Source of the DNA: a virus
IMG/VR virus record: IMGVR_UViG_3300021400_000123
Coordinates: 1-48,469 of that record
Reading direction: 5' to 3' (one strand)
DNA length: 48,469 bases
The position numbers and the translations under genes are program-made. The notes below the pieces were generated by a model. The model worked only from the letters and a program-made list of their open reading frames with translations. It was not told the origin of the DNA and ran no database searches. Of the stretch, positions 30,432 through 37,256 are shown piece after piece. Every line of letters begins with the position of its first letter. Positions within the stretch are counted from its first letter, which is position 1.

Positions 30432-30460
30432 TTGACAAAGGTTTCTCTGCAAACTAAAAT
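30432..30460 (+). promoter_or_regulatory. Rightward early promoter.
   Basis: TTGACA (30432-30437), a 17-nt spacer, then TAAAAT (30455-30460). Confidence 0.55.
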
Positions 30461-30669: not shown

Positions 30670-31097
30670 AAAACTGAATACAGAGGGTCAGGGAGCAGCG
30701 ACTGACCGAAAACAACGCAGGTCTGGCGGAGCCGATGCAATAAGTCCGCTCGGTGCAAGTACCGTCCCTGTTCGGGAAAGTGCCGTCAGAGGGGTGGAGA
30801 TCGCAGACCCTCGTAAAACAAAAGCGGATCGGAGGCAATAAAGCGCAGGGTGTGAGACACCGAAAGAGCCGGGACCTGCGGCGGCATCACCCAGATCGGT
30901 GGAGGCAACAGCCTCACTCAACAGGGCAGGGCATGAGGGCAACCCAAGAATACTCAAGGGGCAAGAGACCTGAAAGAGTTCTTCTTCACAGCATGGAGAA
31001 CTCTCTCAAAACTTCGGGACCCAGAAGCCTAAGAGGCAAGTAGAAGAACCTGAAAGCCTAAAGGTTCTGGAAATCCAAGAGAGGGAGAAGAGCAAGA
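30670..31097 (+). other. ORF-free GC-rich early leader of 428 nt, with many hairpins and short direct repeats. Candidate structured RNA.
   Basis: No RBS-preceded ORF is present. Hairpins include 30686-30707, 30849-30861, 30902-30915, 30975-31004 and 31045-31068, and there are five GAAA-containing loops or junctions. Confidence 0.35.
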
Positions 31098-31250
31098 ATG
31101 AAGCAGCCAAAGAAACCAACCTATGAACAGAAGAAGCTGATCAGTAAGGAAGGACTGAACTGGAAGGACTGGATGATCAAGGATGAGGATAACATCTCCA
31201 TCGCACTGATCCATAAGGAGACGAAGGAGATCAAGGTTATATGGAAGTAG
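31098..31250 (+). CDS. Small conserved phage/ICE protein (DUF6906-like), 50 aa; below the ORF-track cutoff.
   Basis: MKQPKKPTYEQKKLISKEGLNWKDWMIKDEDNISIALIHKETKEIKVIWK, recognised from memory as the K-x-P-T-x-x-Q-K-x-L-I...W small-protein family. GAGGGAG RBS. Confidence 0.55.
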   Translation: MKQPKKPTYEQKKLISKEGLNWKDWMIKDEDNISIALIHKETKEIKVIWK

Positions 31251-31294
31251 GTGAGAACGGATGAACGAAATCAAAGTGGAGGTGATGTTCACAG

Positions 31295-32212
31295 ATGGAT
31301 ACCAGAAGCGATACACGGAGGCAGTGGCGAAAGCGTACCAGAAGAAAAGCCGTAAAACGGTGGTGGAGAGCGCAAAAGAGTACAGTGCTGACTGTGATCC
31401 TCGTAGCCTTCGGGGCGATGCTCTTCATGCTCCTGCCAACGCAAGGACAGGACAAAGAAGAGCCGCTCATGCAGGAGGCAAGATACTACATAACGGATGA
31501 TTACTACTACACCAATTATGCGGACTACCAAGAAGCCATGAGGCAGAGGGATGCGTACTACCAGGAGCAGATGGAAGAGTCGGCCAGAGAAGTAGAAGCG
31601 ATGGAAAGAGCCAGAGCAGAGTTCGAAGAGGCAGAGCAAAGAAGGGCAGAAACAGAACTGAAATTCTCACGAGCATACTACCGATACCCGGAGCCGTTCA
31701 ACTCTCCACCGATCATCTGGTACGAAGAAGACCTCGAAGGCTTTCAGGAATATGAGATACCAGAGGAATACACCAAGGGCGGCGGATACTTCCCAGACAT
31801 CATCCAAGAGTATACCTGGGTGCTTTGCAAAGAAAAAGGAATCGACTTCGATAAGGCGGTGGCTCTGATCGAGCAGGAGACCGGGTATGTCTACGATGCA
31901 ATAGGAGAAGCCGAAGATAGCGGATACTGCCAGATAGTGAGGAAATACAACGAAGACCTCATCGAAAGACTGGGAGTGACAGACCTGAAGAATCCATACC
32001 AGAACATCCTCGTAGGACTGACCTTATTAGACTGGCTTCTGGATGAATACGATGGCAGCTACGAAAAAGCACTCACAGCCTACAATGCAGGAACGGACGG
32101 AGCATATAGAAACTACTTCTCCGCAGGAGTATATGCCAGTCCATACGCAAAGAGCGTCCTCGACAGGGCGGAGCGGATCAGGAAGGAGATGCAGGATGCA
32201 GCAGAAGATTGA
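31295..32212 (+). CDS. Membrane-anchored lytic transglycosylase (SLT domain). The 5' end is probably mis-framed; see findings.
   Basis: TM segment VLTVILVAFGAMLFMLLP. SLT-like catalytic region ...ALIEQETGYVYDAIGEAEDSGYCQIV...ALTAYNAGTDGA. Confidence 0.72.
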   Translation: MDTRSDTRRQWRKRTRRKAVKRWWRAQKSTVLTVILVAFGAMLFMLLPTQGQDKEEPLMQEARYYITDDYYYTNYADYQEAMRQRDAYYQEQMEESAREVEAMERARAEFEEAEQRRAETELKFSRAYYRYPEPFNSPPIIWYEEDLEGFQEYEIPEEYTKGGGYFPDIIQEYTWVLCKEKGIDFDKAVALIEQETGYVYDAIGEAEDSGYCQIVRKYNEDLIERLGVTDLKNPYQNILVGLTLLDWLLDEYDGSYEKALTAYNAGTDGAYRNYFSAGVYASPYAKSVLDRAERIRKEMQDAAED

Positions 32213-32561
32213 TGATGGCTTTATTTATGTCAAAGCCTCGAAAGAGGAAGAGGCGGTCATAAAGACATGGCGAATGATGAAGAAGGATAAGGAAAAAGGG
32301 TACTGGTACGGAGCAATATCGAGGCCGCTTCTGGAGAACCTGAAAAGGAACGGCGGACTGATACCTCCGGCAAAGAAAATCCTCGATGATATGTTGACCG
32401 TTCAGGCGGCGGTGGATGCGGAGAGGATCAAGCCGGACAAGAGCGTATCGCCAAGATATAAGTACCCGATAAAAGCGAAGCTATTCACGCACCAGGTCAG
32501 AGCAGCGAACATGGCTCTGATGGTCTTCGGGGTAGTTCCGCCAGAAGGAAGGACAGGATGA
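32196..32561 (+). CDS. 121-aa protein whose C terminus resembles the Q-motif N-terminal segment of an SNF2/DEAD-like helicase.
   Basis: GGAAGGAG RBS 7 nt upstream. The C terminus ...YPIKAKLFTHQVRAANMAL... resembles the L-x-x-(H/Y)-Q-x-x-A segment that normally precedes Walker A. Confidence 0.55.
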   Translation: MQQKIDDGFIYVKASKEEEAVIKTWRMMKKDKEKGYWYGAISRPLLENLKRNGGLIPPAKKILDDMLTVQAAVDAERIKPDKSVSPRYKYPIKAKLFTHQVRAANMALMVFGVVPPEGRTG

Positions 32562-32899
32562 TGGATTACAAAGCAATAATCGGACAGCTTCAGAGCCTGA
32601 AGGAACACTGCCAGGACTGGGCGGATAAGGAAGAGGAAGGCAACATCTGGAATCAGGATGTGCAGGCTCTCGATGAAGCAATGGATATCATATACGACTA
32701 CGGCGGAGCTGCAGAGCAGGCAAAGAAGCTGATACAGAAATACGAAACGGTCAAGGATGCCATCGAAAGAGGCATGGGAACATGGCAATGCCCGAACTGC
32801 CAGAAGTTTATATCCTTCGGGAATGAACACTGCCACTGGTGCGGACAGAGGCTCGGATGGGAGCCGAAGATAAGACCGAAAGCAAGGAGGAAAAGGTAA
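32558..32899 (+). CDS. Zinc-ribbon protein.
   Basis: ATGATG coupling to the upstream stop. CPNC...HCHWC motif. Basic C-terminal tail. Confidence 0.6.
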   Translation: MMDYKAIIGQLQSLKEHCQDWADKEEEGNIWNQDVQALDEAMDIIYDYGGAAEQAKKLIQKYETVKDAIERGMGTWQCPNCQKFISFGNEHCHWCGQRLGWEPKIRPKARRKR

Positions 32900-34228
32900 A
32901 TGCAGGAAGAACCACTGAAGGATAGAGACTGCACGATAGATACCCCGGTCACACTGGGAAAACAGGATGATCCGATCTATGGCAAAGGCATCAGGATCCG
33001 TCCGAGGATAGATGGCAGGAAGGACACAAAGCACTTCGAGAGCATCTACCTGCAGGAGCTTCTGCCATTAGAAGAATATGACCTGATCGTGGTTCTCTTT
33101 TCAGGAGGCAAAGACTCAACGGCCTGCTACCTCAAACTGATAGAACTCGGAGTGCCAAAGGAGAAAATCGAACTCTGGCACCATGACATAGACGGCGGAC
33201 ATCCGACCAGAAGAATGGACTGGCGATGCACACAAAACTATGTGAAAGCAGTCGCAGAAGCAGAAGGAGTCACGCTTCGGGTCTCGTACAGAGTGAATGG
33301 CTTCTTCGGGGAATTGTATCGGATCGGAGCATCGGAGCCTATCGAATGGATAGATCCAGACACCGGGGAAGTGAAGCAGTGCAAACTTTCACCGAACTAC
33401 CTCAAATGCAAGGAACTAAAGGAGCAGGCAACAGAAGAGATGGAAGAACTCCTGAAGGAGTATGGATGCCGCCTAAAGTTTCCGGCGAAGACAGGAGACC
33501 TCTCCAGAAGATGGTGCAGCGCATACCTGAAGATAGATGTGATGGGATCCGTGATCAGCAACCTCGACAGACTCAAAGAATTGGAAACCCTCGGCGGCAA
33601 GCGTCACAAATTCCCGGCAAAGGGAGGAACGCACCAGGGGAGATGGTGCAGCGGAAACCTCAAAGCGGCAGTTCAGGACAGTGTGACGGCGAACCTGCAG
33701 GAGACAAGGAAGGACAAGAAGATCCTGATCGTTTCTGGGGAGCGAAGAGGAGAATCTGCAGGCAGAGCAAAGTACAACGAAATCGAGATAGGAAGGCAAA
33801 ACGCAGAGGCGAAGGCTCACAGGACGGTGCATCAGTGGAGATGCTGCATAGATTACACGGAAAAGGATGTCTGGGAACTCTTAAAGAGGCACCATATCAA
33901 TCCGCACCCATGCTACAGAGTCGGGTGGAACCGATGCAGCTGCGCAATGTGCATCTTCAGCACACCAAGATTATACGCAGGCTTCAATGAACTCTTCCCG
34001 GAAGACTTCAAAGAACTCCACAACGATGAGGTAAGGCTTGGATTTACGCTCGACAACAAAAAGAACCTCTATGAGTTCATCGAAGGAGCTGAAAGCTGCG
34101 TGAACAGGAATGACCAGAAAGCACTCCACAGCATTCAAACCGGGGAATTTACCACTGAGGATGTCTACATAGAGGACTGGAAGTATCCTGCCGGAGCATT
34201 CCACGGAGCAGACGGAGGATCCTGCTGA
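32900..34228 (+). CDS. PAPS-reductase-like PP-loop ATP pyrophosphatase family protein.
   Basis: PP-loop motif LFSGGKDS, SGERRGES, and conserved RWCS...LK and ...GWNRCSCAMC motifs. AGGAGG RBS. Confidence 0.82.
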   Translation: MQEEPLKDRDCTIDTPVTLGKQDDPIYGKGIRIRPRIDGRKDTKHFESIYLQELLPLEEYDLIVVLFSGGKDSTACYLKLIELGVPKEKIELWHHDIDGGHPTRRMDWRCTQNYVKAVAEAEGVTLRVSYRVNGFFGELYRIGASEPIEWIDPDTGEVKQCKLSPNYLKCKELKEQATEEMEELLKEYGCRLKFPAKTGDLSRRWCSAYLKIDVMGSVISNLDRLKELETLGGKRHKFPAKGGTHQGRWCSGNLKAAVQDSVTANLQETRKDKKILIVSGERRGESAGRAKYNEIEIGRQNAEAKAHRTVHQWRCCIDYTEKDVWELLKRHHINPHPCYRVGWNRCSCAMCIFSTPRLYAGFNELFPEDFKELHNDEVRLGFTLDNKKNLYEFIEGAESCVNRNDQKALHSIQTGEFTTEDVYIEDWKYPAGAFHGADGGSC

Positions 34229-34313
34229 AAGAACAAGCATAGGTGCCAAGCGGTAAAACCGCATGACATATAGAAACTACAAATCACAACCCTAAAACGA
34301 AAGGAGAGACGGA

Positions 34314-35030
34314 ATGTTTGAAAAACTGTTTCAAAAGTATGACCGCTTACTCTTCTTCGACACGGAGACAACAGGCTTCGAGCCGGAGAAGGTAGACCAG
34401 ATCATCGAACTGGCAGCGGTAACAATCGACAAGGACGGTACCACGCAGGAGATGGACGAATTCATTCATCTGTTCAGGATGCCGGAGCTGCCACCGAAGA
34501 TCATCGAGCTGACTGGGATCCTCGATCTGACACTGGCAACCGAAGGGATAGATGAATACGATGCTCTGGCGAAGTTCCTGGAACTTATGCAGTGCAAAGG
34601 AGATACGCTTCTGATTGCGCACAATGCCCAGTTTGACCTTCAGTTCCTGGCTTATTCCATCTATCGGAACAGAGAAAAGGGCAAAGGATGGATGATGGTC
34701 TTCAATGACTGCGACTACCTCGACACCTTAACGGTCTACAAAGACCGCAGGAGCTATCCACACAAACTGGAATCAGCGATAGTCGAGTACCATCTGTCCG
34801 GGAAAGTGCAAAACAGCCACAGGGCGATAGATGACTGCAAGGCACTGATGGAAGTAGCCAAAGCGATGGATGAGGAGAAGCCGGATCTCGACAGATATGT
34901 GAACCTCTTCGGTTTCAATCCGAAATACGGACCCGAAAAGAATCAGCTGAAGAAGGTCACATATGTACCGCAGGATTTGTGGAAATGCCCTCCGGCAATA
35001 CCCACATACGAAACGATAGGGAGGAGATGA
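34314..35030 (+). CDS. DnaQ-like 3'-5' exonuclease (DEDDh).
   Basis: ExoI LFFDTETTG, ExoII IAHNAQFDLQFL and ExoIII HRAIDDCKAL motifs. Confidence 0.85.
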   Translation: MFEKLFQKYDRLLFFDTETTGFEPEKVDQIIELAAVTIDKDGTTQEMDEFIHLFRMPELPPKIIELTGILDLTLATEGIDEYDALAKFLELMQCKGDTLLIAHNAQFDLQFLAYSIYRNREKGKGWMMVFNDCDYLDTLTVYKDRRSYPHKLESAIVEYHLSGKVQNSHRAIDDCKALMEVAKAMDEEKPDLDRYVNLFGFNPKYGPEKNQLKKVTYVPQDLWKCPPAIPTYETIGRR

Positions 35031-35034
35031 GGAT

Positions 35035-36393
35035 ATGCAAGCCAAGAATAAAGGCTTCGGTCTTCTCTTCGAAATGGGATGCGGTAAAACGCTGACAGCC
35101 ATCGCCATCATGGGAGCATTGTACCAGGAGAAAAAGATAGACAGAGTCCTCATCGTAGCACCGACATCGGTGGTGGCGGTATGGCCGCACGAACTGGCAG
35201 ACTTCGCAGATTATCCGTTCACAGTGGAGACCCTTCTGGGAGATAAGAGGAAGAGGCTGCGGAGCATCAACGACCTGACGAAATATCCGTACCCGAAGCT
35301 GAAGGTGGCGGTAATCAACTACGAAAGCGTATGGAGAGACGATATCAAGGACGCAATCGAGACCTTCGATCCAGACCTGATCATCTGCGATGAGAGCCAG
35401 AGGATCAAGACTCACGACTCAAAGCAGAGCAAAGCGATGCACGAACTGGGAGACAGGGCAAGGTACAAGCTGATCCTTTCGGGAACCCCGGTGCAGAACA
35501 ATGTGACAGACATATGGAGTCAGTACCGCTTTCTGGACAAGACGGTCTTCGGAGAACTCTACTACGCATTCCAGAATCACTTCTGCGTGATGCACTCAGT
35601 ATTCAAGAGCAAGGTGCTGCGCACCATCAACGAAGAGGAACTGGTAACCAAGGAACACTCGATAGCATTCAGGGTGACCAAGGAAGAAGCACTCGACCTG
35701 CCGGAGCAGACATTCGAGACAAGATACATCGAGATGACTCCGAAGGAGCGAAAGACCTACGACTCCCTGAAAAGGGAATCGGTGGCAGACATCGAAGGCG
35801 GCGGAACGATAACAGCGACCACGGTACTGACGAAGCTGCTCCGCCTGCAGCAATTCACCGGGGGATTTCTGGTGGAGGACGGCGCAACAGAGCCGAAGCA
35901 GGTATCCACAGCTAAACTGGACGCACTGAAGGACATCATCGAGGACTATGTGATAGACGGAGGAAAGAAACTGGTGGTCTTCGCAAGGTTCATCCCGGAA
36001 GTGAACGCAATCATCGAGATGGCGGAGAAGACCCTGAAGGATAAGAAGGTGGTCAGCATTCAAGGCTCGGTACCAAAGGAACAGAGGGGAGACATAGTCG
36101 ATCAGTTCCAGAAGGACCCGGACACGGTGCTCTTCATCGGGCAGATCGACACGGCAGGAGTGGGAATCACACTAACGGCGGCAGACACCTGCGTCTACTA
36201 CTCGAAGACCTACAACTACGCTACATACGAGCAGAGCCTCTCCAGAATTCACAGAATCGGACAGAGAAATGTCTGCACCTACATCGACCTGGTATGCGCT
36301 GACAGCGTGGATGAGAAGATCACAAGAGCACTCCGAAAGAAGGAAGACCTCGCAACCAAGATAGTGGATAACTGGAAGGAGATATTCAAGTGA
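35035..36393 (+). CDS. SNF2-family helicase core; it begins just before Walker A and lacks the upstream Q-motif segment.
   Basis: Motif I LLFEMGCGKT within the first 20 aa, motif II LIICDESQRIK, later motifs LILSGTPVQN and ...GVGITLTAADTCVYY...QSLSRIHRIGQ. GGGAGGAG RBS. Confidence 0.88.
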   Translation: MQAKNKGFGLLFEMGCGKTLTAIAIMGALYQEKKIDRVLIVAPTSVVAVWPHELADFADYPFTVETLLGDKRKRLRSINDLTKYPYPKLKVAVINYESVWRDDIKDAIETFDPDLIICDESQRIKTHDSKQSKAMHELGDRARYKLILSGTPVQNNVTDIWSQYRFLDKTVFGELYYAFQNHFCVMHSVFKSKVLRTINEEELVTKEHSIAFRVTKEEALDLPEQTFETRYIEMTPKERKTYDSLKRESVADIEGGGTITATTVLTKLLRLQQFTGGFLVEDGATEPKQVSTAKLDALKDIIEDYVIDGGKKLVVFARFIPEVNAIIEMAEKTLKDKKVVSIQGSVPKEQRGDIVDQFQKDPDTVLFIGQIDTAGVGITLTAADTCVYYSKTYNYATYEQSLSRIHRIGQRNVCTYIDLVCADSVDEKITRALRKKEDLATKIVDNWKEIFK

Positions 36394-36605
36394 TGGATGA
36401 GATGAAGAAAATCGTGATCTGCAAGCACTGCGGCAAGCCTGAATACTTCGGAGAGATGCGATGGCTTTCAGGAAGATGCTCCTGCCGGAGCTGCTACAAA
36501 GCGCAATGGCAGGACGAAGAGAAGGAACTGTACAGATGGAAAGACCTCGATGGAAGAAGACCGACCATGGAGGAATACAAGAAGCAGGAGGGTATCAATG
36601 AATAA
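36390..36605 (+). CDS. Cys-rich small protein.
   Basis: CKHCGK...CSCRSC motif. Start coupled to the helicase stop. Confidence 0.55.
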   Translation: MMDEMKKIVICKHCGKPEYFGEMRWLSGRCSCRSCYKAQWQDEEKELYRWKDLDGRRPTMEEYKKQEGINE

Positions 36606-36774
36606 AACTTGTAAAGGCTGCTATGCGGCAGACACAGGCGGTCATCCGATGAGCGGAGAGGCTCACGGATGCACACTCGGATACAAGACGGACGGCAACG
36701 GACATCCGGCAGAAGAATGTACGAAACCGAAATCATGGAAACAGCTGAATCAAAGCAAAAAGAAGGGAGAATGA
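36598..36774 (+). CDS. Cys-rich small protein (58 aa).
   Basis: The ATG at 36598 overlaps the upstream 3' end. CKGC motif. Confidence 0.45.
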   Translation: MNKTCKGCYAADTGGHPMSGEAHGCTLGYKTDGNGHPAEECTKPKSWKQLNQSKKKGE

Positions 36775-37256
36775 AAATGGCAGACGGAAGAATCAAAGAA
36801 CTGATCGATGAGTACGAAAGACTCCGCACGGAGAAGGACGAACTGGCAGAGAAGACAAAGGCAAACAATGAGGCATACAAGCAGATCCAGATTGATCTCG
36901 CAGAAGCAATCAGCGATGCGGACATGGCGGATGCCCAGGACGGAGACTATGTCTACACACCGGGAGTGACCACGAAGTACAGCTTCAAGAGTCAGGGAGA
37001 CCTCGAAGAGGAAGGACTGGATAAGTTCGAACCATTCGAAAAGGATCCTGCACTCTGCGGACTGGTCAAGAAGGATATCAACTGGAGAAGCCTCAACTCG
37101 GCTCTTTCAGAACTCGCAGACACTGAAGAAGGAGTGCCGGAGGAAGTCATGGCGGTACTGAACACCTACGATGAGATCGGTATCACCAGAAGAAAAAAGG
37201 ATACAAAGTCAAAGTCCAAAGTTAAGGACGCAATCAAAGCAAGGAGGGAAAGCTGA
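36771..37256 (+). CDS. Coiled-coil protein of the recombination module.
   Basis: ATGA coupling. 161 aa. It lies upstream of the Sak4-like ATPase. Confidence 0.55.
   Translation: MKMADGRIKELIDEYERLRTEKDELAEKTKANNEAYKQIQIDLAEAISDADMADAQDGDYVYTPGVTTKYSFKSQGDLEEEGLDKFEPFEKDPALCGLVKKDINWRSLNSALSELADTEEGVPEEVMAVLNTYDEIGITRRKKDTKSKSKVKDAIKARRES

Follow-up and report, generated by a model that had tools for sequence, protein, structure and literature searches.

A phage SNF2 helicase gene probably in two pieces, with its Q motif encoded by a separate upstream gene

The motor core, the small upstream protein and single-chain relatives

Where is the Q motif of a phage SNF2 helicase whose gene begins almost at its Walker A codons? 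The question is raised by a complete gut phage genome of 48,469 b (IMG/VR record IMGVR_UViG_3300021400_000123; hereafter the window, meaning that whole stretch of DNA), a relative of Faecalibacterium phage FP_Epona. On its plus strand, a 452-aa SNF2 motor core (35035–36393) lies 2.5 kb downstream of a gene for a 121-aa protein (32196–32561), and an earlier reading, made from the sequence alone, had proposed that the two are halves of one helicase. The evidence presented here points the same way: the SNF2 helicase is probably a gene in two pieces, its Q motif being supplied in trans, and 131 related phage and prophage loci (Lachnospiraceae, Oscillospiraceae, Faecalibacterium) are cut at the same loop.

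The core comprises both RecA-like lobes, an SNF2-related N-lobe (SNF2-rel_dom, PF00176, 130.3 bits against a Pfam cut-off of 24.9) and a Helicase_C lobe (PF00271, 57.8 bits, cut-off 23.5), and matches phrog_62 at 430 bits. Its motifs, namely GCGKT at residues 15–19 (Walker A, G15 to T19; codons 35077–35091, plus strand, uninterrupted in the window), DESQ at 119–122 (motif II, placed from the translation at 35389–35400, plus strand), SGTP at 149–152 and RIHRIGQ at 404–410, are all invariant in alignment A1. The match to SNF2-rel_dom begins only at profile position 21 of 290, and that to ResIII at 22 of 164; the Q-motif segment is therefore absent from the core, which begins 14 residues before GCGKT, much as the sequence-only reading had it, so that Q motif and motif I do not share a polypeptide. 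Homologues of the core are mostly 450–460 aa long. The break falls in the loop that leads from the Q-motif helix to beta-1, and the core carries beta-1, Walker A and everything downstream. Since proteins of this superfamily are reported to need motif Q to bind and hydrolyse ATP (PMC2691824), a Q motif in trans is of mechanistic interest.

A segment of the expected kind is found at the C-terminus of the 121-aa protein, which consists of a family-specific N-domain (approximately residues 1–95) followed by a Q-motif helix (LFTHQVRAANMALMVFG, codons 96–112, 32481–32531, plus strand). Residues invariant among 16 diverse small proteins include H99, Q100, R102, N105, M106 and F111, all in this C-terminal helix. 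An alternative start at 32043 would give a longer reading that overlaps the SLT gene; homologues begin at Met 32196. Intact one-gene outgroups (Vibrio phage K298, Pseudomonas phage E79 and Staphylococcus phage 3A) show HQ or YQ 20–25 residues before GxGKT, and in a joint alignment the outgroup Q, the sole invariant residue before the P-loop, is aligned with Q100 of the small protein. In the same alignment, conceptual joining of the halves gives normal spacing from the Q motif to GxGKT, and the two proposals made from the letters alone, that a Q-motif segment ends the small protein and that the spliced product would be normally spaced, both hold. A short F-G motif noted as common to the two fragment ends is indeed present, with F111 and G112 of the small protein conserved, but it adds no evidence, and nothing shows duplication to be its source.

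Uninterrupted helicases were found among the relatives. In the single-chain proteins P0006 (585 aa, core 91% identical, 30 member sequences) and P0045 (570 aa), the core is preceded in the same chain by a homologue of the 121-aa protein, and further fused forms are L077, P0186 and P0271–P0273, together with the fragments P0192 and P0131. The neighbourhood of the fused genes has the same order as in the window, with DUF7307 followed by an AAA_24 Sak4-like gene and then SSB, and the ResIII match of P0045 reaches back to profile position 3, covering the HQ segment. The best PDB sequence match of a fused relative was the Sulfolobus Rad54-like protein 1Z63 (E 4e-45). An AlphaFold2 model of the P0006 fusion had a mean predicted local distance difference test score (pLDDT) of 81, with helix 98–110 lying in the 101–110 block, whose mean was 94, and the linker at 119–134 below 50; its top fold matches in Foldseek were SNF2 ATPases (for example, 1Z63). 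Helix 98–110 would probably dock on lobe 1. This model was built from alignment A5, comprising fused proteins and cores only. Alignment A4, in which MAFFT had placed stand-alone small proteins inside the core, was dropped, as was the register of P0006 obtained with phmmer against the PDB, in which the linker was mis-aligned to the Sulfolobus LRPYQ; the alignment with the intact phage outgroups was used instead.

It could be argued, alternatively, that the 121-aa protein is an independent accessory protein, that the core is a Q-motif-less ATPase acting alone and that the fused forms are incidental fusions of neighbours. The N-terminal ~95 residues of the small protein form a domain for which no fold match is known (a model of the stand-alone protein gave no significant match in the PDB), and at four prophage loci the small protein occurs without a nearby core. 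However, the invariant residues are exactly those of the HQxRxxNM helix, and alignment to intact relatives puts this helix on their Q motif, as far from GxGKT as would be expected. Several lineages have acquired or retained a fused form, with order and register the same in every case; moreover, a core acting alone would lack a motif reported as necessary for ATP binding and hydrolysis (PMC2691824). Independence is unlikely in the light of these observations, and membership of an unrelated family, which the sequence-only reading had named as an outcome that would refute a split helicase, is contradicted by natural proteins that join a 121-aa homologue to the core. If the two proteins are instead parts of one helicase, they would assemble non-covalently, and Q100 would be supplied in trans to the nucleotide pocket.

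Two relatives of unusual build were also recovered. In P0121 (210 aa), which is homologous to the small piece, the N-domain is duplicated in tandem before a single Q helix, and P0188 (504 aa), of the fused type, continues into unrelated C-terminal sequence after approximately residue 365 and is probably a recombinant or truncated gene.

Co-inheritance of the pieces and the genes between them

The pairing of the two genes was surveyed from both sides. Among 85 IMG/VR loci collected by their core genes, the small gene was present upstream, on the same strand, at every core locus with more than ~2.2 kb of upstream DNA (69/69), at distances of 10 nt (in the fused L077) to 4,764 nt, which speaks against homologues of the core that manage without any Q-motif segment. 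Among 80 prophage loci collected by their small genes from Lachnospiraceae, Oscillospiraceae and Faecalibacterium genomes, 12 end too early to tell; where more than 2.3 kb of downstream sequence was available, the core followed at 64/68 loci, all 64 of them split, with gaps of 82–4,912 nt (median 1,278 nt). A profile search of 1.84 billion proteins with the small protein returned only 217 representatives, nearly all stand-alone and 75–230 aa in length.

Both genes are under purifying selection. The median ratio of non-synonymous to synonymous substitution rates (dN/dS) was 0.29 for the small gene and 0.14 for the core, and between the window and L002 it was 0.078 and 0.062, respectively. Pairwise distances of the two genes were correlated (Mantel r 0.83, a value reached by 0/999 permutations) with no discordant pair: the halves are inherited together despite the changing contents between them. 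That the split is evolved rather than recent, as had been supposed, is borne out by its occurrence across the 131 loci and by the median ratios. The same data bear on the possibility that the split reflects decay, as a pseudogene remnant in a degrading prophage, or an artefact of assembly. Stop-containing inserts in the Walker A codons of some relatives, described below, could be taken as a sign of decay, but the same architecture is seen in more than 130 independent contigs, the catalytic motifs are all intact in the window, dN/dS lies at 0.06–0.14 for the core and 0.08–0.29 for the small gene, and the 48.5-kb virus record that makes up the window is complete. Decay or artefact is very improbable on this evidence.

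Between the pieces the window carries three genes, all on the plus strand: a Zn-ribbon protein (113 aa, 32558–32899, PF10005), a PAPS-reductase-like PP-loop protein (442 aa, 32900–34228, PF01507, phrog_424) and a DnaQ/RNase_T-type 3′–5′ exonuclease (238 aa, 34314–35030, PF00929 at 94 bits, phrog_192). Both junctions have their own start or stop codons and ribosome-binding sites (RBS), in agreement with the sequence-only reading: the ATG at 32196 is preceded by GGAAGGAG, the stop of the small gene overlaps the start of the Zn-ribbon gene as ATGA (32558–32561), and the ATG at 35035 is preceded, at 8 nt, by GGGAGGAG. Translational coupling, which had been proposed for all three inserted genes, was evident for the first two (through the ATGA overlap and, between the Zn-ribbon and PAPS-reductase-like genes, a tightly coupled TAAATG) but not for the exonuclease gene, which has its own RBS behind an 85-nt spacer. 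A consensus scan found one early promoter-like site (TTGACA, 17 nt, TAAAAT; 30432–30460, plus strand), the sole plus-strand site of this kind upstream of both helicase genes, and no plus-strand promoter-like or terminator-like site between 30460 and 37500; a single early rightward transcript therefore probably carries both halves and the cargo. Both helicase proteins would then probably be made from the same message.

A co-oriented pair of halves whose conceptual joining gives normal spacing might also be reunited, whether by removal of the intervening 2.5 kb (as a group I or group II intron, or by site-specific DNA excision) or by a split intein joining the two proteins. Against this, the halves lie in different reading frames (32196 versus 35035) and have separate RBS and separate stop or start codons, and the cargo differs in almost every relative. 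For an intron, no Rfam family matched at E≤1 in 31000–37000; for excision, there are no direct or inverted repeats at the junctions and no recombinase gene in the gap of the window; and for a split intein, the small protein continues for only 9 residues beyond G112 and the core has only 6 ahead of G7 in its GFG, leaving no room for intein halves, nor was there an intein match in Pfam. Restoration of a single chain by any of these routes is extremely improbable, and two separately translated pieces remain the favoured arrangement.

The contents of the gap were diverse. The 131 split gaps held 357 plus-strand open reading frames (ORFs) in 96 clusters, 58 of which were singletons. The Zn-ribbon gene was the commonest cargo (55/131 loci) and was the first gene after the small piece in 50/55; the DnaQ exonuclease was present at 10/131 loci, and the PAPS-reductase gene lay between the halves only in the window and L002, being absent from L003 and L007. 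Other cargo included GcrA/Myb-type regulators, DNA methylases (C5, N6/N4 and Dam-type) and DUF4406 nucleoside deoxyribosyltransferase-like proteins, as well as PcfJ-like and DUF3102 proteins, a tyrosine integrase, an IS110 transposase and HNH endonucleases. Even the closest relatives vary by module, L002 having in addition a C5 methylase and one further gene and L003 being without the PAPS reductase. The 85-nt spacer (34229–34313) is a module boundary: L002 has a 1.5-kb C5 DNA methylase insertion exactly there (window 34237/34233 corresponding to L002 5249/6757). The inserted 2.5 kb, read from the window as one cassette, is instead a mosaic of independently varying accessory modules, and its genes are neither part of the helicase nor one mobile unit. 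The idea that the gap is an insertion hotspot was rejected, the upstream early region being more variable; the gap is an ordinary variable stretch that happens to sit within a split gene.

An IS110-family transposase gene (L080:4682–5890, minus strand) and a tyrosine integrase gene (L037:6137–7210) were each found between the halves, and other mobile elements therefore also land there. A small-piece homologue of 222 aa, P0148, is cut within the Q helix and joined to a Zn-ribbon homologue; the join may hint at a functional link or have arisen as an artefact of deletion.

Direction of change, endonuclease genes and the origin of the split

In a core tree rooted with the outgroups, the fused forms L077 and P0186 fell at an unresolved base, the fused P0006 and P0045 were nested, with full support, among split forms including the window, and P0271 and P0273 were nested within another split clade. 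Approximately unbiased (AU) tests rejected both a single fused clade (p 2e-5) and a single split clade (p 0.0014). The linkers of the fused forms vary from ~4 to ~35 residues, and P0006 and P0045 retain the tail of the small protein and an apparent start Met of the core. A single old split with several later re-fusions accounts for this most economically; phage recombination could blur such a reading. At the DNA level, homology between the window and the fused L086 ends at 32529 and restarts at 35044, with 71 nt between these points in L086 versus 2,514 nt in the window. The linker of P0006, inspected for the relic of an RBS that a secondary fusion might have left, contained a weak GTGAG and nothing stronger.

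The small-piece parts of P0271 and P0273 are ~82–91% identical to that of P0006, and parts of their cores group with a different lineage, a pattern in the sequences that points to recombination inside the helicase gene of these two forms as a probable event.

What first divided the gene is suggested by relatives rather than by the window, whose gap contains no homing endonuclease gene detectable with Pfam. An endonuclease gene (HNH_3 or NUMOD4-type HNH) was present in the gap of 26/131 relatives and, where it was of the HNH_3 type, it was always the last gene before the core (17/17 loci). The relatives differ, too, in the Walker A codons themselves. The 12 nt encoding M-G-C-G (window 35074–35085) were broken by inserts of 4–44 nt in 39 of 130 parsed relatives, amounting to 30 distinct sequences (for example, in L037:7900–8010, L038:6400–6500, L007:5100–5215 and L101, the last with two inserts). 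A stop codon directly followed the putative take-off codon in 26/30 distinct insert sequences, and 21/30 had both the stop and take-off and landing codons matching at two or three positions, as in GAA TGAA ATG, GGT TAGGT AAG and, across the 44-nt insert of L037, GGT TGA ... GGT. These inserts are candidate sites of ribosome hopping or of stop and restart, the latter being possible for inserts just before the Met codon of EMGCGKT.

Inserts and endonuclease genes occurred together. The gap contained an endonuclease gene in 22 of the relatives with a Walker-A insert and lacked one in 17, compared with 4 and 87, respectively, of those with clean Walker A codons (Fisher p 9e-11, odds ratio 28). L007, whose core is 84% identical to that of the window, has both features; the window has neither. 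The pattern is that of the mobA/gene 60 element of T4, and it fits an endonuclease directed at the conserved coding stretch of Walker A and located beside it. On the strength of the HNH_3 position, the association with inserts and the presence of both features in L007, we lean towards an origin in which insertion of a free-standing HNH homing endonuclease gene beside its Walker-A target split the helicase gene, the window descending from such a form with the endonuclease lost and the split kept.

Several points weigh against the account given so far. The window is without an endonuclease gene, so this origin is drawn from relatives, and the helicase gene could already have been in two when an endonuclease invaded it. 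The gap is not exceptionally variable, being more so than the downstream replication module and less so than the upstream early region. Co-inheritance of the halves may be explained by genetic linkage alone. Finally, the four prophage loci with a small gene but no nearby core have no cognate core within 7 kb downstream, and other SNF2 genes in these genomes belong to different, intact families. At one of the four, L107, in a Clostridia genome, directly downstream of the small gene are a terminase fragment and portal, protease and capsid genes (L107:7571–12135), and a core gene was found nowhere in that genome; this prophage is rearranged, its small piece orphaned.

Comparison with known genes in pieces, and neighbouring features

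Phage genes in pieces are, as a kind, already known, and the locus shares with them continuous orthologues (L077, P0006, P0045 and P0186, and the outgroups K298, E79 and 3A) and two pieces that are translatable, each with its own RBS and start, and under selection (dN/dS 0.29 and 0.14); a homing endonuclease gene at the break is absent from the window and present in 26/131 relatives. In the original case, nrdA of Aeromonas phage Aeh1 is split by the HNH endonuclease gene mobE, and the pieces reassemble into an active enzyme (PMC2988022). As there, a gene that is continuous in related phages is here two separately translated genes, both kept, and a free-standing HNH endonuclease gene occurs at the break in relatives of the window. 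Unlike nrdA/mobE, the gene cut is that of an SNF2 ATPase, between Q motif and motif I; the gap of the window holds three unrelated cargo genes and no endonuclease gene; and the split spans a large clade of Clostridia phages, with single-chain forms recurring on the tree. The Aeh1 pieces form an active enzyme, whereas for the helicase reassembly is what we infer, indirectly, from the natural fusions, the co-inheritance and the model of the fused form.

In T4, topoisomerase genes 39 and 60 are associated with mobA and a 50-nt translational bypass (PMC2988022). The relatives resemble this case in having an HNH gene at the break and short stop-containing inserts in an adjacent conserved coding stretch, and resemble gene 60 in their matching take-off and landing codons (for example, L037). 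In contrast to gene 60, the Walker A codons of the window (35077–35091) are uninterrupted, and bypassing in the relatives is putative. The link between bypassing in T4 and mobA is reportedly due to Bonocora et al. 2011. The gene 43A/43B DNA polymerase of Aeromonas phage 25, whose products co-purify and are active, leaves it unclear whether the endonuclease was the cause of the split or a later invader (PMC2988022). There, as in the helicase, a replication enzyme comes from two cistrons parted by inserted DNA, and the endonuclease either split the gene or invaded it later; the enzyme and the position of the split are different, and no multi-gene accessory island is described in phage 25. In fractured genes with split inteins, too, an endonuclease gene separates the two halves of a severed gene (Dassa et al. 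2009, PMC2677866). Unlike these, the helicase has no intein halves and therefore no join by protein trans-splicing.

In the full-text literature, no prior description was found of a split SNF2 or of a Q motif in trans in phages. New here are the SNF2 motor as host gene, cut between Q motif and motif I, the persistence of the split across a clade, its repeated re-fusion and the multi-gene accessory stretch grown at the break. Such a locus is a natural experiment on superfamily 2 (SF2) motors: with the adenine-sensing Q motif on a separate chain, the contribution of this motif to the SNF2 ATPase could be tested directly. It also indicates that a gene split can last across a clade of abundant gut phages (relatives of FP_Epona), rejoin repeatedly and come to house accessory genes, DNA methylases among them. 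In annotation, the ‘hypothetical protein’ of ~120 aa upstream of such helicases should be named as the helicase N-terminal subunit, and pangenome pipelines should count the pair as one function.

A more elaborate functional arrangement, in three parts, can be imagined, in which the Q-motif subunit is a separately dosed gate on ATP use by the motor, the Zn-ribbon protein is a third partner, the gap, flanked by the halves of a replication gene that the phage needs, is a protected landing pad for methylases and other accessory genes in the early transcript, and ribosome hopping is needed in the Walker A codons of some relatives. The Zn-ribbon protein is cast as third partner because its gene is first after the small piece in 50/55 loci and starts with the ATGA overlap, and because of the P0148 fusion. 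We regard this arrangement as speculative and rather doubtful.

Directly downstream of the core, a Cys-rich gene of 71 aa (36390–36605) starts on the core stop, with a GTGA overlap. It had no family match in Pfam or PHROGs, and FP_Epona has a small gene at the equivalent position (L001:7828–8052).

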